From positions 1,184,001 to 1,248,000 of the forward strand of contig CAVWPA010000003.1 in the NCBI GenBank assembly GCA_963756875.1: a DNA stretch of 64,000 nucleotides, read 5' to 3'. Position numbers and translations under genes: made by a program. Shown here piece by piece: positions 9,326 through 62,164 of the stretch. Below the pieces are notes generated by a model that saw only the letters and a program-made list of their open reading frames with translations, made no database searches and was not told the DNA's origin. Position 1 is the first letter of the stretch, and each line of letters begins with the position of its first letter. The stretch is from an uncultured Verrucomicrobiae bacterium (GTDB lineage: Bacteria; Verrucomicrobiota; Verrucomicrobiia; Chthoniobacterales; UBA10450).

Positions 9326-10039
9326 ATGCTGCCCGCGTTTTCGGTTGTTATTCCCTGTTTTAACGAAGCTGCGCGCATCGGCCAAACCGTACGCGCCACG
9401 CTCGATTATCTTCTGCATGTCAGTCCCGAAAGCGAACTGATCGTCGTGAACGATGGCTCGACTGACGCAACGTCGACGATCGCCCGGGAATATTTGGCCG
9501 GCGCAAAAATAACAGCGCGACTTCTCGAAAATTTTCCGAACCGCGGGAAAGGTGCGGCCGTCCGAAAAGGTTTGCTCGATGCGCACAAACCGATCGGCTT
9601 GTTTTTCGATGCCGATCTTTCGACGCCGCTCGAGGAAACGCCGAAACTGGTCGAGCCGATCGCGCACGGCGATGTGGATGTGGCTTTCGGGTCGCGCGCG
9701 CTTGATCGAAGTTTAATCGGTCACCGGCAACCGTGGCGGCGGGAGCAGGCAGGTCGCGTTTTCAATTTACTGGTTCGCCTCGCAACGGGCATGCCGTTTT
9801 GGGACACGCAATGCGGCTTCAAGGCATTCCGGCTCGATGTTTGCCGTCCTGTTCTGCAGGCGGCGCGACTGGATGGTTTCGCCTTTGACGTCGAGCTGCT
9901 CTTTCTGGCAAAGCGCGCGGGGTTGCGCCTGCGCGAAATCCCTGTCCGCTGGAACCACGCTGAAGGAAGCAAGGTGCACTTTCTCCGCGACAGCCTGGGC
10001 ATGCTCCGCGAAGTCGTCGCCCTGCGTGCGCGGCTGTAG
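9326..10039 (+). CDS. GT2 polyprenyl/dolichyl-phosphate beta-glucosyltransferase-like protein
   Basis: VVIPCFNE, VNDGSTD, NRGKGAAV, FFDADLS, DTQCGFK and FAFDVE motifs. Confidence 0.88.
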   Translation: MLPAFSVVIPCFNEAARIGQTVRATLDYLLHVSPESELIVVNDGSTDATSTIAREYLAGAKITARLLENFPNRGKGAAVRKGLLDAHKPIGLFFDADLSTPLEETPKLVEPIAHGDVDVAFGSRALDRSLIGHRQPWRREQAGRVFNLLVRLATGMPFWDTQCGFKAFRLDVCRPVLQAARLDGFAFDVELLFLAKRAGLRLREIPVRWNHAEGSKVHFLRDSLGMLREVVALRARL

Positions 10040-10058
10040 CGGCGGTCTATGACCGCCG
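10035..10058 (+). repeat. GTAG-type REP half-element overlapping the GT2 stop codon
   Basis: TGTAGCGGCGGTCTATGACCGCCG is the exact reverse complement of the right half of the 24990-25063 doublet. Confidence 0.75.
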
Positions 10059-10133
10059 AAAAATTAGCAGTACAGCAAAGCGGCGCGCTGACCGACTATC
10101 CGATCTGGCGCGCCTGCTTGAATGACTCAGTTG

Positions 10134-11778: not shown

Positions 11779-11816
11779 AACGCCCAACGTTCAACGCTCA
11801 ACGGCCAACGCTCAAC
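11779..11816. repeat. Heptamer tandem array (AACGYYC)x5
   Basis: aacgccc aacgttc aacgctc aacggcc aacgctc aac, just upstream of the carA start. Confidence 0.8.
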
Positions 11817-14734: not shown

Positions 14735-14874
14735 TCCGGGGAGCGGACGCGCCCTCGCGTGCACCGTTCGTCGCCTCGCCGAACGGAATGAAAAGAACAA
14801 AAGAGTTTCCGGCGAGGGCGCCGGAAGTCCGAGCCGGACTGGCGTTAGCACGCGAGGCGCGTGCGCTCCCCGGA
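14735..14874. repeat. Family A palindromic element, copy 1 (pheS-pheT spacer)
   Basis: TCCGGGGAGCGGACGCGCCCTCGCGTGC...GCACGCGAGGCGCGTGCGCTCCCCGGA. Confidence 0.85.
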
Positions 14875-15921: not shown

Positions 15922-15958
15922 AACGTTGAACGTCCAACGCCCAACGTTCAACGTTCAA
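15922..15958. repeat. Heptamer tandem array (AACGYYC)x5
   Basis: aacgttg aacgtcc aacgccc aacgttc aacgttc, just upstream of the pheS start. Confidence 0.8.
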
Positions 15959-24933: not shown

Positions 24934-24989
24934 AATTGTATCGTGAGGGAGCGGAATTGCCAATTCCTGATCGATCCTTCGGCGGATCC

Positions 24990-25063
24990 TGTAGCGGCGG
25001 TCCATGACCGTCGGACGTTTTGGATCCTTGGCACGATTCCGGCGGTCATAGACCGCCGCTACA
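24990..25063. repeat. GTAG-type REP-like inverted doublet
   Basis: TGTAGCGGCGGTCCATGACCGTCGG...CCGGCGGTCATAGACCGCCGCTACA. Confidence 0.85.
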
Positions 25064-25067
25064 ACCT

Positions 25068-26867: not shown

Positions 26868-27012
26868 GGGTAGCGCACGCGTCCCGCGTGCTGGTTGCGG
26901 CGTCTCGCCGCAACGCACTTTGATCGACTATCCGCAGGGCGGCATCGGATTGCAGAAGGAAGTTTGCGATGGCGGGACGCCCTCGCCGGCACGCGAGACG
27001 CGTGCGCTACCC
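26868..27012. repeat. Family A palindromic element, copy 2 (overlaps the rpe stop)
   Basis: GGGTAGCGCACGCGTCCCGCGTGC...GCACGCGAGACGCGTGCGCTACCC. Confidence 0.85.
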
Positions 27013-46432: not shown

Positions 46433-46440
46433 GCCCCGTG

Positions 46441-49368
46441 ATGACATCCGCGCAGATCAGACAATCGTTCCTCGATTTCTTTCGCGGGAAGGGGCACACG
46501 ATCGTGCCTTCGTCCCCGCTGATGCCCGATTCGCCGAATCTGCTTTTCACCAACGCCGGCATGAACCAGTTCGTTCCGATTTTTCTCGGACAACAAAAGC
46601 CGCCCTGGACTCCACCGCGCGTGGTCGACACCCAAAAGTGTATCCGCGCGGGCGGCAAACATAACGATCTCGAAGACGTCGGGCTCGACACGTATCACCA
46701 CACGTTCTTCGAGATGCTCGGCAACTGGAGCTTCGGCGATTATTTCAAGAAGGAAGCGATTGAATGGGCGTGGGAACTGGTGGTCGATCGCTGGGAATTT
46801 CCGGCGCAACGTCTTTACGCCACCGTTTACAAACCCGGCGCCGGTGAACCAAGCGAATTCGATCAGGAAGCGCACGATTGTTGGGCCCGATTGTTTCGCG
46901 ACGCCGATCTCGATCCGGCCGTTCACATCGTAAACGGCGGCAAAGCCGACAATTTCTGGATGATGGGCGATACCGGACCGTGTGGTCCATGCTCAGAGGT
47001 ACACGTCGATCTTACGCCGGAGGGCGACACGCGCGGCGCGCTGGTGAACAAGAACGATCCGCGCTGCATTGAGATTTGGAACCTGGTTTTCATCCAGTTC
47101 AACGCTCAACCTGTAGCCGGGGTTGGTGACCCCGGCCGGGTCGAGTATGTCCCGCTGGGGGCGCGGCACGTCGATACCGGGATGGGTTTCGAGCGGGTCA
47201 CCGCGATCGTTCAAGGCACAAAAAACCTCAGCGATTTTTCCGGCACAATTTCCAATTACGAAACGGACATCTTCCGTCCGATTTTCGACGAGTTGGAAAA
47301 ACTCAGTGGGAAGAAATATGCAAGCACGCTGCCTGATTCTCCGGATCGGGGAGCGCACGCGCCCTCGCGTGCAGCGGTTGGCGCCTCGCCAAGCGCATCC
47401 GGCGAGGCGCCGGATGCAACACCCGAGGCGGGTGTGCTCCCCAGAAACGAGCAGGAAAAGATCGACGTGGCGTTTCGCGTGATCGCCGATCACATCCGCG
47501 CGCTCAGTTTCGCGATTGCCGATGGAATTATTCCTTCGAACGAAGGGCGCGGCTATGTTTTGCGCCGGATCCTGCGCCGCGCGGTCCGCTATGGCCGCAC
47601 CCTCGGGTTTCACGAGCCGTTCTTTTTCAAACTGGTCGACACTGTGGCAAAAACAATGGGCGACGTTTTTCCGGAGGTCCGCGCCAAACGAAACACGATT
47701 AAGGAGGCAATTCACCGTGAGGAAGAAGCGTTTAACAGAACGCTGGATGAGGGGATTCACATGTTCGATGCGGCGATGGTGTTCGATGCGGAGAAGGCAA
47801 AGACGGGGCTTTCAGTTGAGAAAGCCGTTTCTGGCGAGTTCGCTTTCAAACTCTACGATACCTACGGATTTCCTCTGGATTTGACGGAACTGATGGCGCG
47901 GGAGCGCGGGCTTACTGTCGACGTGGTCGGCTTTGAGAGACTGATGGAAGAACAGCGCGAACGCGCGCGCAAAGCCCAGAAGAAGGAGGCGATCAGCGTT
48001 GAGCAGGGGAAGTTGACGGCGGCTCCGACGAAATTCCTTGGCTACGATTTTCTCGAGACTGAGGCTGTCGTGGAGACAGTTTTGTCCGGGAAAAAGCCCG
48101 ACGAGGTGAACGTTGTTCTCGATCAAACGCCGCTCTATGCGGAGATGGGCGGACAGGTCGGCGACCGCGGTTTGCTTCATGTCCCAGGACACGATCGCAC
48201 CGAAGTCGGTCAACTTCGCGTCATCGATACGCAAAAACGAGGCGACGTTTTTGTTCATCGAGCGACGCTGACCAAGGGGCGCGCGCCGGAGCCGGGTGAA
48301 GCGGTGCGGGTCTCGGTCGATGCCGAACGACGCCGCGTGATTCAAGGACATCATACGGTCACGCATCTGTTGCATTGGGCGCTGCACGAAGTCGTCTCGC
48401 GCGACGCCGTGCAAAAGGGGAGTTACGTCGGTCCTGACAAGTTGACGTTCGATTTCAGCAGTGCGCCCCTCACGCCGCAACAGAAGCGTGACGTGGAAAG
48501 ATTGGTGAACGAGAGAATCCGCGACGGTGCGCCGGTTTCATGGACCGAGATCCCGTACAAGGAAGCGAAACAGCGCAAGGACATCATCCAATTTTTCGGC
48601 GAAAAATACGGAGATACGGTCCGCGTATTGCAAATCGGCGGGACACCTCGCGAACTGGACGGTTATTCGATGGAGTTATGTGGTGGAACGCATGTGAGAT
48701 CGACAAACGAAATTGGGCCGTTCCGGATCGTGAAGGAAGAAGCGATCGCCGCGGGAATTCGCCGGATCGAAGCGGTCGCGGGCGAGGCGACGCGTGCGTG
48801 GGCCAGACAGGAAGCGGCTCGGCAAGAGGAGAGGTTCGAAACGCTAAGGCGCAAAAAGACCGATTTGCCGCCGATGCCCGGTTTTATGGATGAAGCGGAA
48901 ACATCTGTGATGCTGGAACAGATTGATGCGCGAGCGGCACATTTGGGAAAAGCAGATCTCGATGTCCGCGAGTGGGAAAAGAAGACTGCCAAAGCGAGCG
49001 AGGCAGACCTGAGAAGCCGCGCCGCTGAGATCGCAAGCGAACTGGCGTCGTCGCATGCTGGAAAACATTCATTAGTGGCAGAAGTGCCGGACGGAAACGG
49101 CAAGTTGCTTCAGGCGATTGCCGACGTGCTGAAGTCGCAATTCAAGGGACCGATTTTTCTTGCCGGCGCGGCGGAAGGTCGGGCGGCGTTAGTCGTCGTG
49201 GTTCCAAAAGAGCTCACGTCGAAGTTTCAAGCGAACAAGATTATTCAGGCGGTTGCGCCAATTGTTGGCGGCAAAGGCGGTGGCCGGCCGGAAAACGCTC
49301 AAGGCGGCGGCACCGACACGAGCAAGATCGCGGAAGCATTGGCGAAAGTGCGGGAGCTGTTGCGCTGA
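46441..49368 (+). CDS. alaS: Alanine-tRNA ligase carrying repeat-derived in-frame insertions
   Basis: LLFTNAGMNQF, HHTFFEMLGNWSFGDYFK, DTGMGFER, IADHIR, HTVTH, ELCGGTH and GGKGGG motifs. Confidence 0.97.
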   Translation: MTSAQIRQSFLDFFRGKGHTIVPSSPLMPDSPNLLFTNAGMNQFVPIFLGQQKPPWTPPRVVDTQKCIRAGGKHNDLEDVGLDTYHHTFFEMLGNWSFGDYFKKEAIEWAWELVVDRWEFPAQRLYATVYKPGAGEPSEFDQEAHDCWARLFRDADLDPAVHIVNGGKADNFWMMGDTGPCGPCSEVHVDLTPEGDTRGALVNKNDPRCIEIWNLVFIQFNAQPVAGVGDPGRVEYVPLGARHVDTGMGFERVTAIVQGTKNLSDFSGTISNYETDIFRPIFDELEKLSGKKYASTLPDSPDRGAHAPSRAAVGASPSASGEAPDATPEAGVLPRNEQEKIDVAFRVIADHIRALSFAIADGIIPSNEGRGYVLRRILRRAVRYGRTLGFHEPFFFKLVDTVAKTMGDVFPEVRAKRNTIKEAIHREEEAFNRTLDEGIHMFDAAMVFDAEKAKTGLSVEKAVSGEFAFKLYDTYGFPLDLTELMARERGLTVDVVGFERLMEEQRERARKAQKKEAISVEQGKLTAAPTKFLGYDFLETEAVVETVLSGKKPDEVNVVLDQTPLYAEMGGQVGDRGLLHVPGHDRTEVGQLRVIDTQKRGDVFVHRATLTKGRAPEPGEAVRVSVDAERRRVIQGHHTVTHLLHWALHEVVSRDAVQKGSYVGPDKLTFDFSSAPLTPQQKRDVERLVNERIRDGAPVSWTEIPYKEAKQRKDIIQFFGEKYGDTVRVLQIGGTPRELDGYSMELCGGTHVRSTNEIGPFRIVKEEAIAAGIRRIEAVAGEATRAWARQEAARQEERFETLRRKKTDLPPMPGFMDEAETSVMLEQIDARAAHLGKADLDVREWEKKTAKASEADLRSRAAEIASELASSHAGKHSLVAEVPDGNGKLLQAIADVLKSQFKGPIFLAGAAEGRAALVVVVPKELTSKFQANKIIQAVAPIVGGKGGGRPENAQGGGTDTSKIAEALAKVRELLR
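47348..47442. repeat. Family A palindromic element, copy 3 (in frame inside alaS)
   Basis: GGGGAGCGCACGCGCCCTCGCGTGC...CACCCGAGGCGGGTGTGCTCCCC. Confidence 0.85.
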
Positions 49369-56458: not shown

Positions 56459-56511
56459 ATATCACGCTAGTGCGAAAGGGAGGGGCCGCAAGATCGAGAA
56501 TCGCTCTTGCC

Positions 56512-56581
56512 TGTAGCGGGGCTCCATGAGCGTCGTATTATTTCCCTTTCAGCGACCCCGAAAGCTTTTGCGGCCGCTACA
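56512..56581. repeat. Degenerate GTAG-type REP-like doublet
   Basis: TGTAGCGG...CCGCTACA termini, related to 24990-25063. Confidence 0.6.
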
Positions 56582-60088: not shown

Positions 60089-62164
60089 ATGCAAAATCGT
60101 CCAGGATCTGTTTTTGTCCGGGGGAGCGCGCGCGTCTCGCGTGCTGGTTTTGGCCTCTGGCCAAAACATACTTTGCTTGTGCCAGCAATGCGGTCGCGCA
60201 CGCATTTATTGCGCGGTACCGTTTTTAGAAAGTTCGTTTCGGCGCGACGCCGAAACCAGCACGCGGGACGCGTGCGCTACCCAAAGATCGGGAACACGAT
60301 CTCTCTCGGTTTAGCGTTCGTCGCCGTTACCGGGGCGTTGCACTGCATCGCGCAGCAGCCGTCGCCATCGCCAGGCGAAGCCCAGGCCGAGCCGGTCGTT
60401 GTTTCGGCAACCAGATTCGACATTCCGCTCGATCAGTCGCCCGCATCGATCAGCGTTGTCAGTTCCCAGGATCTCGATCAAAGGCAGATCGATCGCGTGG
60501 CGGACGCGTTGCGCGAAGTGCCCGGGCTTTCGGTCGTTCAAACTGGAACACAAGGCCAGCTCACTTCCGTTTTCATGCGCGGACTTCCGAGTGAAGATCT
60601 GCAGGTTCTGCTCGACGGCATACCGATTAATCAGGGCCTGTCGGGGGCGTTTAATTTTGCCGACCTGACAATTGACGATATCGACCGCATTGAAGTTGCG
60701 CGGGGTCCGCAAAGTACGCTCTACGGACCGCGCTCGCTCGCGGGGGTCATTCAACTTTTTACGAGGCAAGGCACCGGAACACCCAGTGTTACTCTGAGCA
60801 CCGAGGCAGGAAGCTACGATACATTCCGCGAAGCGCTCCAGAGCGACGGGAGAATCGGCGATTTCGATTACGCGCTAGGGGCGAGTCGCATCGACACGGA
60901 TAACGCGCGGCCGAATAACGACTATCGCAACAGCGCGGCCACTGCGGACGTAGGCTGGTCGCCTGACGCACATCTGCGAATTGGAAGTTTGTTCGTCTAT
61001 TCGGAAAGCGAAACCGGAAACCCGAATTCGATCTTCGATCCGAAGCCGATCGATCATTTTTTGACCGAGCATTGGCTGATTGGGCCGCATTTCGATGTTC
61101 GGATCGCGGATTGGTGGGATCACAAGTTGATTTTCGATTACGATCACGAACGCCAGGTAAACAACCCAAACCAGGATGGATTCGTCGGACCTACGCGGGC
61201 CCTTTTTGAACGCACAACAATCGATTATCAAAACAACCTGCGGCCCACCTCGTGGCTCACGCTTACCAGCGGGCTGTTTTACAACACGATCAAGGCCGGG
61301 CAGGAACGTCCATTTGTCTCGCAAGCATTTGGACCGCAGCCAAAGTTCATTGGCGACGAGGTTCAAGAGAATGCGGTTTTTGCCCAGGCTACGGTGAATA
61401 TTCGGAATTTTATTCTCGTAACGGGCGGGCGCCTCGATGAGTTCAATCAGTTCGGCGATGTTTGGACGTATCGAGTTGCGACCAGCTACAAAATCGACAG
61501 AACAAACACCACGTTGCATTCAAGTGTCGCCACCGGATTCAGTCCGCCGAGCAGTCAGGACAAGATTTTTGGCAACAACTTCAATCTCAAGCCTGAAAAG
61601 GATTTTGGCTGGGACATGGGATTCGAACAGCGACTCTGGGAGAACAGGGTGATCGCCGGGGCCACATATTTTCACAATGATTTGTCGAACGTTATTGGGT
61701 TTAACGGCCAGTTTAAAACGCTCAACCTTGGCGCGGCCGAAACTCAGGGCTTGGAGACGGAATTACGCGTCCAGCCGACTCCCGATGTTACGCTGAAAGC
61801 GAGCTACACTTATCTCGAAGCTGAGAAAACATCCCTGGCGGATATTTCGCAGTTGCAGGGCGCGCGTTTGCCGCGGCGGCCGAGAAATGAAGTTTATGTA
61901 TCCGCGTCGTATCTTTGGTGCAAGAAACTGCGCACCACCATCGAGGCCAAATGGGTCAACGCGCGCGAGGAACTGAATTTCGGCGGACCGAATTTCGACA
62001 TCGAGGACTACAACTTCGTCAATTTCGCTTCGGAATATGAAATCAACTCGCACTTCTCCGTCTTCGGCCGGATCGACAATCTGACGAACGAGCATTACGC
62101 GGAGGTGTTCGGATTTCCCGCGCCAGGCCGCGCCGCGTACGCGGGAGTAAAGCTGCGGTTTTGA
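60089..62164 (+). CDS. btuB: TonB-dependent receptor, probable vitamin B12 transporter (BtuB-like)
   Basis: TonB box EPVVVSATR, plug motifs (LREVPGL, VLLDGIP, IDRIEVARGPQSTLYG) and C-terminal F. GGAGGA lies upstream of ATG 60089, and the gene follows a cobalamin riboswitch. Confidence 0.85.
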   Translation: MQNRPGSVFVRGSARVSRAGFGLWPKHTLLVPAMRSRTHLLRGTVFRKFVSARRRNQHAGRVRYPKIGNTISLGLAFVAVTGALHCIAQQPSPSPGEAQAEPVVVSATRFDIPLDQSPASISVVSSQDLDQRQIDRVADALREVPGLSVVQTGTQGQLTSVFMRGLPSEDLQVLLDGIPINQGLSGAFNFADLTIDDIDRIEVARGPQSTLYGPRSLAGVIQLFTRQGTGTPSVTLSTEAGSYDTFREALQSDGRIGDFDYALGASRIDTDNARPNNDYRNSAATADVGWSPDAHLRIGSLFVYSESETGNPNSIFDPKPIDHFLTEHWLIGPHFDVRIADWWDHKLIFDYDHERQVNNPNQDGFVGPTRALFERTTIDYQNNLRPTSWLTLTSGLFYNTIKAGQERPFVSQAFGPQPKFIGDEVQENAVFAQATVNIRNFILVTGGRLDEFNQFGDVWTYRVATSYKIDRTNTTLHSSVATGFSPPSSQDKIFGNNFNLKPEKDFGWDMGFEQRLWENRVIAGATYFHNDLSNVIGFNGQFKTLNLGAAETQGLETELRVQPTPDVTLKASYTYLEAEKTSLADISQLQGARLPRRPRNEVYVSASYLWCKKLRTTIEAKWVNAREELNFGGPNFDIEDYNFVNFASEYEINSHFSVFGRIDNLTNEHYAEVFGFPAPGRAAYAGVKLRF
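60121..60282. repeat. Family A palindromic element, copy 4 (in frame in the receptor N-terminus)
   Basis: GGGGAGCGCGCGCGTCTCGCGTGCTGGTTT...AAACCAGCACGCGGGACGCGTGCGCTACCC. Confidence 0.85.

Follow-up and report, generated by a model that had tools for sequence, protein, structure and literature searches.

In the passages of two papers considered here (PMC10969869, PMC3733652), the Rickettsia palindromic elements (RPEs) appear as palindromic repeats of about 100-150 nt that lie in frame in unrelated housekeeping genes, adding a peptide to the product and leaving the gene unbroken. The same passages of a 2024 review of MITEs (miniature transposable elements with inverted repeats) call in-frame MITE fusions 'not unusual' and take RPEs as the extreme case (PMC10969869). 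The present study concerns a 95-nt palindromic repeat that lies in frame in the alanyl-tRNA synthetase gene (alaS) of an uncultured Verrucomicrobiae bacterium, at positions 47348-47442 of a 64-kb stretch of DNA that was analysed as a whole and is called the window below (G000:C3:1184001-1248000). G000 designates this genome (2.69 Mb in 3 contigs, 56.8% G+C), other G-numbers designate the 30 relatives from the same order that made up the alaS comparison set, and coordinates without a prefix are window positions.

Intragenic copies are also on record for repetitive extragenic palindromic (REP) sequences and terminal inverted repeats (TIRs). According to the passages of Di Nocera 2013 considered here (PMC3733652), many intragenic REP/TIR repeats lie in uvrA, dnaE2, recB and tRNA-synthetase genes, and Opitutus terrae, a member of the Verrucomicrobia, holds the most intragenic GTAG repeats, including those in both its uvrA genes. 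These passages also describe the TIRYT/TIRtron elements, in which tyrosine transposases lie between TIRs with ends of the GGGGWSAS type (a motif stated for 'some TIRs' only) that are sometimes doubly palindromic and may overlap the transposase open reading frame (ORF) at its 5' or 3' end. The corresponding passages of Quentin 2018 (PMC6006769) report REP sequences within genes without frame disruption, including inside the tnpA-REP genes of subclass 2.4, and equate TIRYT with subclass 2.1, all members of which carry a C-terminal helix-turn-helix domain. Compared with these systems, the insert in alaS is in our view a minimal non-autonomous copy of a REPIN/TIR-dimer-like element (probability roughly 0.85).

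The alaS insert and its repeat family

The alaS gene occupies 46438-49368 on the forward strand as a 976-aa ORF that opens with GTG (an ATG is next at 46441). All 976 codons are intact, and its product is identified as alanyl-tRNA synthetase (AlaRS) by the Pfam matches tRNA-synt_2c (E 3e-182), tRNA_SAD and DHHA1. The genome search returned this single alaS match and no second alaS in the assembly, which is rated 87.6% complete. An earlier note, made from the letters alone, had taken 47348-47442 for a palindromic element read in frame as part of AlaS, and this description was borne out: a 95-nt core running from GGGGAGC to GCTCCCC (GGGGAGCGCACGCGCCCTCGCGTGC ... GTGCTCCCC) encodes RGAHAPSRAAVGASPSASGEAPDATPEAGVLP within the AlaS peptide ...KKYASTLPDSPD-RGAHAPSRAAVGASPSASGEAPDATPEAGVLP-RNEQEKIDVAFRVIADH.

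The element consists of two inverted end modules with two hairpins each and no variable middle, and is the shortest of the 57 paired copies of its family in this genome. Its first half reads GGGGAGC-GCACGCG-CCCT-CGCGTGC-A-GCGGTTGGCG-CCT-CGCCAAGCGC and its second half ATCCGGCG-AGG-CGCCGGAT-GCA-ACACCCG-AGG-CGGGTGT-GCTCCCC. The left end module (47348-47396) thus comprises the terminal GGGGAGC, hairpin 1 (47355-47372) and hairpin 2 (47374-47396, with one mismatch), and the right end module (47397-47442) comprises hairpin 2' (47397-47415), hairpin 1' (47419-47435) and the terminal GCTCCCC. In hairpin 1' the stem ACACCCG/CGGGTGT replaces the family consensus GCACGCG/CGCGTGC by two pair changes, both of them compensatory. 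According to base counts over the 57 copies, three further bases are conserved on each side of the family's elements (T-C/T-C/T before GGGG and G/A-G-A after CCCC); here these flanks are ATC and AGA, which extends the element to 47345-47445. When these 101 nt were folded and compared with 200 shuffles, the single-stranded DNA formed four hairpins closed by a terminal stem (-45.5 kcal/mol, z -7.7) and the RNA formed one long hairpin (-73.8 kcal/mol, z -7.6), and none of the shuffles (0/200) folded as well in either form. An Rfam scan of 46900-47900 gave no sign of an intron or known RNA; its two matches were both far below their gathering scores (17 vs 37.8 bits and 15.7 vs 37 bits).

The repeat family was searched over the whole genome using an nhmmer profile of the 60-nt end module (threshold E<=1e-3). 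This returned 138 ends, which resolve into 57 paired elements and 24 lone ends; the paired copies comprise 55 of 95-220 nt and two of 577 nt. The 14-nt terminal motif alone occurs 179 times genome-wide with up to two mismatches, and with up to three mismatches it has five matches in the window compared with none in each of 100 shuffles. To judge the alaS copy independently of itself, a leave-one-out profile was built from 110 element ends with this copy excluded and was run on the whole genome and on a shuffled genome. Both ends of the alaS copy were recovered, the left one with 37.1 bits (E 4.3e-9) and the right one with 21.9 bits (E 2.4e-4), whereas the best match in the shuffled genome had E 2.1. 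The similarity to other copies on which the earlier note had relied is thus significant.

The main end type of the family reads GGGGAGCG. GTAG is contained only in the GGGTAGCG sub-type, and T stands at the fourth position in 13 of the 57 left ends. Hairpin 1 (GCACGCG/CGCGTGC) is almost invariant. Of 114 ends, 106 have hairpin 2, whose stem occurs in 67 sequence variants around conserved CCCT, CCT or TCT loops, so that its stems covary and structure rather than sequence is what is kept. Target-site duplications were sought at all 57 copies; direct repeats of 2 or 3 nt were found at 0/57 and of 4 or 5 nt at 1/57. All six frames of the ends are without stop codons, and across the 55 short copies the average number of open frames is 3.58 of six (random genomic pieces matched in length 2.38, sd 0.16; shuffles 2.17). 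Multiples of three are not over-represented among the lengths of the short copies, which leave remainders of 0, 1 and 2 in 14, 21 and 20 cases.

Besides the alaS copy the window holds three paired copies, at 14738-14871 (134 nt), 26868-27012 (145 nt, GGGTAGC-ended sub-type) and 60121-60282 (162 nt). The earlier note had located the same three, the first at 14735 and thus 3 nt off. The third lies either upstream of a TonB-dependent receptor ORF or at its very 5' end, and the Plug domain of the receptor begins about 50 codons after this copy. A sister family with the same GGGGAGCGCA terminus and another hairpin 1 (GCAGGCT/AGCCTGC) is found at G000:C2:65179-65279, where it encodes LGSAGCQPAVAGS..., and also fills metH and recG insert sites of relatives (for example metH site 2 in G016 and G004; L170, L169). 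The window further contains a second, GTAG-tagged family of REP-like hairpins (CTGTAGCGGCGGTC.ATGACCGCCG) at 10032-10061, 24989-25066 and 56511-56535, and tandem heptanucleotide repeats (e.g., AATCCGC, CTCAACC, AACGCYC) at 11779-11815 and 15922-15958. The latter are read in frame as IRNPQSAIR- or STLNPQLS-like peptides in thiC (G000, L200, ~780-810), metH and, in two relatives (G017 and G010), the alaS loop, and represent a further class of repeat DNA translated as protein.

The insertion site was compared in 26 alaS sequences covering it (L003, L014, L020 and L022 were left out as truncated or in the wrong frame). A short loop of the STLP-K-x-G-S-x-G-E-x-EQEKID type, or a short variant of it, is present in 19 of the 26, and relative to these empty sites the alaS of G000 has a net gain of 30 codons. 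The element family described here occupies the site in four (G000, G016, G008 and G007). The G016 copy is 93% identical to that of G000 over 101 nt; the G008 copy is internally deleted and has lost its left half, with 98% identity over the remaining 40 nt and alaS open; the copy in G007, an unpublished genome like G002, is a diverged one of 131 nt with compensatory stems of its own. The remaining three (G012, G004 and G022) have other long inserts, which are significantly palindromic in G012 (z -5.1) and G004 (z -6.5; 0/200 shuffles each) and not in G022 (z -1.4). The loop of G012 (L002) holds a GTAG-ended palindromic doublet of a kind similar to the second REP-like family of the window. The distance between STLP and the conserved QEKID motif ranges from 8 to 86 residues among the relatives, and since several different inserts occur at this one site, the alaS loop is a recurrent landing or retention site.

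Solved AlaRS chains (5knn, 4xem, 1riq, 3hxu and others) match residues 1-292 and 326-499, with a gap where the insert stands, which places it in the linker that joins the aminoacylation domain to the helical tRNA-recognition domain. An AlphaFold model covering residues 1-500, for which 23 sequences were aligned (mean predicted local distance difference test, pLDDT, 69.7), gives residues 300-332 a pLDDT <50, flanked by confident helices at 279-289 and 337-360. The insert would be translated as a low-complexity, probably disordered loop of about 32 residues. The loop would be expected to lie on the surface, a point that the earlier note had suggested checking by structure prediction.

Transposase-bearing copies and other in-frame inserts

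A search of the genome for the Pfam family Y1_Tnp (PF01797) gave six places, two of which lie within the two 577-nt copies of the repeat family. Both of these start and end with GGGGAGCGCACGCGCCTCGCGTGC and its complement, that is, with the ends of the short copies, and encode in a single frame, with no stop inside the element, an HUH tyrosine (Y1) transposase of about 165 aa. Both keep the HUH motif (PDHVH) and the tyrosine motif Y-I-C-R-N. The protein is RAYT/TIRYT-like, matching NCBIfam NF047646 (REP_Tyr_transpos) at E 1.7e-19 over positions 4-145 of 146, below the curated cut-off of that model, and Y1_Tnp at 31.6 bits against a cut-off of 23. A Pfam scan of the 217-aa transposase ORF reported no domain beyond Y1_Tnp. 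The other four Y1_Tnp matches lie in short ORFs of 160-179 aa (C3:12137-12349, C2:136900-137172, C1:672335-672598 and C3:1385666-1385929) and presumably belong to transposases of other repeat families.

In both 577-nt copies the transposase ORF extends across both element ends, and the copy itself provides neither start nor stop codon. The first (C3:1631625-1632201; locus L163 1333-1986, ORF G000:C3:1631566-1632219) lies between pilus genes of the Amuc_1100 and Amuc_1099 families as a small cistron of its own. Its ATG stands 59 nt before the element and 2 nt after the stop of the upstream gene, and it ends 15 nt past the element and 3 nt before the start of the next gene, so that both start and stop are outside the element. 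The second (C2:26120-26696) forms an in-frame part of metH (G000:C2:23183-27811, locus L032/L167, outside the window), with the homocysteine domain on one side of it and the pterin domain on the other. This metH is a 1542-aa open frame in which five MetH Pfam domains were detected, four over the full profile and the B12-binding domain over positions 2-92 of 121, and it contains a second family copy (149 nt) in frame between the B12 and activation domains. The metH of G017 carries both inserts in a 1514-aa frame that is 81% identical over residues 1-1541. The metH site that holds the full transposase copy in G000 and G017 is occupied by a short one in G001.

Between G000 and G017 the transposase core in metH has a nonsynonymous divergence (dN) of 0.158 with saturated synonymous divergence (dS), compared with dN 0.06-0.16 and dS 1.2-2.2 for the MetH domains, and in the stretches coded by the element ends dS is only 0.40-0.49. 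By these rates the protein part of the metH-embedded transposase is under purifying selection, and the element ends are constrained as DNA. With the same ends at hand in both size classes, the short copies are most likely non-autonomous derivatives of the transposase element, and by analogy they would be mobilised by this transposase.

In-frame copies in this genome were listed only where Pfam domains stand on both sides, and in this way 8 of the 57 paired copies and 1 of the 24 lone ends were placed in genes (about one in seven or eight). In addition to alaS and metH, and as the earlier note had anticipated for coding copies, open frames with inserts were found for uvrA, smc, thiC and a DNA polymerase III alpha-family gene. 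The uvrA ORF (C3:700925-705391) has two internal copies and a third in the linker to the second UvrA module; the DNA polymerase gene has a 134-nt copy between its HhH and OB domains; smc has one of 156 nt; and thiC has a half copy. Five relatives that were checked hold a second DNA polymerase III alpha paralogue (~1180 aa, 30-33% identical), and the insert-bearing gene may therefore be of the DnaE2 type. Within the opening 35-100 codons of long open frames there are about five further copies, and the real start of these frames is uncertain. Copies beside the aspartate-semialdehyde dehydrogenase and ammonium transporter genes fall just past the stop codons of these genes.

Insert 1 of uvrA is missing from four and insert 2 from two of the five genomes checked, and the smc insert is missing in two of five (G012 and G009), with no clear call for the other three at either insert 2 or smc; at the smc site G017 aligns partly, G016 aligns straight across, and the smc of G008 is broken by stop codons. 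The uvrA locus as a whole (G000:C3:699175-705391; L033, L206) is a tandem double UvrA that forms a single frame of ~2000 aa in G012, G009, G016 and G017. In G000 a frameshift divides its second UvrA module into overlapping ORFs, of which one ends at 700925 and the other starts at 701088; this is either a sequencing error or real decay. The smc frame of G000 (C1:568008-571256; L031) has 1082 aa compared with 1247-1304 aa in relatives and matches SMC_N from profile position 107 onwards, so that its 5' part seems to be in another frame or interrupted. A recurrent in-frame peptide, ...RDPST(A/P)LRSAQDD..., at metH and dnaE-family linker sites of G003, G013, G007 and G016 (L171, L172, L173, L210) suggests another translated repeat family.

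The 5' reading frame of the in-gene copies is that of the transposase, (L/P)GSARA..., in eight of nine, the alaS copy (RGAHAP...) being the exception (binomial vs 1/3, p ~0.001, in a small sample with several copies in one gene). Formation of the short in-gene copies by in-place deletion of an in-frame transposase was examined as a general route. The shared 5' frame and the short G001 copy at the metH site of the full G000 and G017 copies favour it, but it was rejected since the 3' ends are read in all three frames.

With the alaS element as DNA query, matches were obtained in 16 of the 31 genomes including G000, namely in 13 of 18 other genomes of the same family and in 2 of 12 from other families of the order (57 matches in G000, 53 in G004, 26 in G017). 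An exact hairpin-1 pattern scan over one genome per species gave at least 124 stretches; among the 80 matches listed, 64 had a Verrucomicrobiota-type label, one was labelled 'PVC group' and 15 had another or no label, and in other phyla an isolated match to a hairpin of 19 bases may be due to chance.

The transposase part was also followed into long frames of the relatives, where 16 places were taken and 14 frames scanned. Complete in-frame transposases were found in recG of G016, G003, G004, G015 and G022, where they share a single site flanked by the two helicase domains, and in carB of G003, G029, G004 and G005, where they form a second clade with an MPNHVH motif (Pfam reported Y1_Tnp in one of these four; the other three were recognised by motif). 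G009 has one in a class-I tRNA synthetase with a leucyl editing domain. The alaS of G004 contains one at a second site near residue 450; the same second-site insert occurs in the alaS of G007, and the alaS contig of G002 ends where this insert begins. Two transposase ORFs among the relatives, of 224 and 274 aa, are free-standing.

Origin and age of the alaS copy

The substrates of enzymes of the IS608, IS200/IS605 and Escherichia coli TnpA-REP class are hairpins in single-stranded DNA, and no target duplication results from their action. The 577-nt parents carry around a transposase the same ends as are joined, with nothing between them, in alaS, and by this analogy the transposase would act on single-stranded hairpins of these ends without duplicating the target. 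As the ends are free of stops and the copies poor in them, a sizeable share of insertions into genes would leave the frame open, and selection would retain only those in tolerant places such as inter-domain linkers and surface loops. On this reading the alaS insert would be translated and be neutral for AlaRS.

Several observations weigh against this interpretation. The native 7-residue loop is absent from the filled alaS allele: the codons P-DSPD-(R) directly 5' of the element (47332-47347, forward strand) and the element together replace the K-x-G-S-x-G-E loop of relatives, as seen by DNA comparison. With the native loop missing and DSPD standing before the element, the insertion event in alaS was not clean. 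Codons akin to DSPD also precede the element in G016, G008 and G007 and, judging from these alignments, may belong to the inserted DNA. The in-gene core lengths (95, 149, 577, 184, 143, 158, 134 and 156 nt) do not run in multiples of three, and the divisibility by three that the earlier note had proposed to test does not hold for the 95-nt alaS core. The AlphaFold model is of moderate quality and is also poor in the conserved stretch 23-100, for which reason it serves as a consistency check only. The NF047646 score of the transposase is 70.1 bits against a cut-off of 80. Its ends depart from the TIRYT motif at one position (C instead of A at position 7 of GGGGWSAS), and they lack the GTAG of REPINs outside one sub-type. 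Finally, a plain neutral passenger fails to explain the 93% (G016) and 98% (G008) identity across genera, and the carriers G000, G008 and G016 form no clade in the AlaS tree.

The last two points concern the history of the copy, and its low synonymous divergence is the main unexplained point. For the element codons dS is 0.109 against G016 (32 codons) and 0.088 against G008 (13 codons), about ten times lower than in flanking alaS (1.08-1.76 vs G016 and 1.2-3.0 vs G008). Either special constraint or late spread between lineages would account for this. A general DNA-level constraint on in-gene copies was considered and rejected, since at the dnaE-family site the element-derived codons are neutral against G012 and G017, with dN (0.75-0.91) about equal to dS (0.74-1.31); G009 and G016 have other sequence there.

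Late spread takes the form of a young mobile allele, carried between lineages by recombination of short alaS patches or by repeated site-specific insertion of one sub-type instead of by common ancestry, and is a tentative option that we hold to be possible but not the likelier one. The three carriers are scattered among G006, G017, G010, G012 and G009, with supports of 97-100 on several of the separating branches, in what is the tree of one gene only. The dS of ~0.1 in a gene whose synonymous sites are near saturation fits a recent arrival, and excision could not easily have restored the native KxGSxGE loop of the non-carriers. Against it, sliding-window DNA identity along alaS, compared with seven relatives, shows no clear block of raised identity around the insert. 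Nor is there an end-to-end match to the alaS copy elsewhere in G000 or G016 (best 91% over 52 nt and 88% over 43 nt), so that no source sub-family is visible.

Exaptation, in which the element has the same origin and its nucleotide sequence or structure in alaS has since been kept by selection, appears unlikely. The sequence might be kept as a stable mRNA structure that slows ribosomes at the AlaRS domain boundary, where the insert lies exactly, or as a DNA site still bound by the transposase. The tenfold lower dS, the stems maintained through compensatory changes and the strong RNA fold (-73.8 kcal/mol, z -7.6) are all in its favour, but late arrival would give low divergence equally well. 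Moreover, the full structure is dispensable in G008, where alaS is open without the left half; 19 of 26 relatives manage without any long insert at the site; and the neutral codons at the dnaE-family site show that in-gene copies are not generally constrained.

That the segment is an ordinary AlaRS loop peculiar to this lineage, or the product of an assembly or pseudogene artefact, and resembles the repeats incidentally is highly improbable: AlaRS does have variable low-complexity loops here (8 to 86 residues among the relatives), but both ends match the leave-one-out profile and fold into four hairpins, two genomes assembled independently have the same insert, the alaS frame of 976 codons is intact with its three domains and no second alaS was found, and the repeat is far shorter than the contigs of this 3-contig genome. 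The two results that the earlier note had named as fatal to its proposal, conservation of the segment in distant orthologues lacking the palindrome and a non-significant similarity to the other copies, did not occur. A minimal non-autonomous copy of the transposase-linked family thus remains the preferred reading of the alaS insert.

Relation to described systems and significance

In its way of life the family resembles the RPEs, and the analogy drawn in the earlier note is sound: both are palindromic repeats inserted in frame in housekeeping genes. The comparison is by way of life alone. The lineage is Verrucomicrobiota and not Rickettsia, and a candidate transposase with identical ends is present here, which departs from the picture of a family like the RPEs without a mobiliser.

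As far as the passages considered go, REPINs are non-autonomous inverted hairpin doublets that fold as one long hairpin, and a Y1 transposase of low copy number, itself bordered by these repeats, is believed to move them (PMC2817692, PMC3116915, PMC3337134, PMC5581495). The family agrees with this in that repeats of the dispersed kind stand on either side of its RAYT/TIRYT-like transposase gene, and in that its 57 paired copies are inverted doublets foldable as one hairpin (alaS copy, z -7.7 as DNA and -7.6 as RNA). It differs in lacking a conserved GTAG at the hairpin foot: the REPINs of those passages are classically extragenic and GTAG-tagged, whereas here GTAG is found only in the GGGTAGC sub-type, each end has two hairpins, and about one copy in seven or eight lies in a gene. 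The terms 'in-frame', 'in frame' and 'fusion' do not occur in Bertels 2017 (PMC5581495).

The likeness to TIRYT/TIRtron elements, judged from the same passages of PMC3733652, includes an HUH transposase between long doubly palindromic TIRs starting with GGGG, moderately abundant dimer families elsewhere in the genome, and in-gene copies that favour uvrA, dnaE2 and tRNA-synthetase genes. The end described here, GGGGAGCG, fits seven of the eight positions of GGGGWSAS and thus not the full motif. A transposase ORF that spans both ends without its own start or stop, and in one copy forms part of the metH frame, is not in the passages of that paper considered here. With respect to subclass 2.1 as given in those of Quentin 2018 (PMC6006769), the ~165-aa protein predicted here would leave no room for an obvious extra domain; 'fused', 'in frame' and 'Verrucomicrobia' do not occur in that paper. 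The family does not behave as a classical MITE, i.e., a derivative of a DDE transposon, in that its copies have no target-site duplication.

The earlier note had called the family apparently undescribed. This particular repeat family was indeed in no paper found, but the kind is already in print beyond Rickettsia in the passages of PMC3733652, so that at most this family is new. A whole Y1 transposase in frame in host genes was likewise not found in the literature covered, a negative on which Additional file 3 of Di Nocera 2013 (the list of intragenic REPs), outside that coverage, may bear. The start-less, stop-less, in-frame habit of the transposase sets the system apart from the known kind.

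Selfish DNA that lies in frame within essential genes tends to be cited as a peculiarity of Rickettsia. The present case comes from a verrucomicrobial genome of the free-living type, which also contains the likely cause: a candidate hairpin-specific tyrosine transposase whose element shares the ends of the short copies. The route of entry into genes, the preference for linkers of repair, replication and translation proteins, and the neutrality of the added loops can thereby be put to the test. For annotation, gene callers and domain annotators will mislabel such chimeric genes and assemblies break at them, as in the alaS contig of G002. On balance we lean towards a transposon family that is expressed by being translated inside housekeeping proteins, with short copies such as that in alaS as by-products. 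If the transposase is indeed made as a segment of MetH, AlaRS, RecG or CarB, this would be a new expression strategy for a mobile element, with an intein-like location and no splicing.

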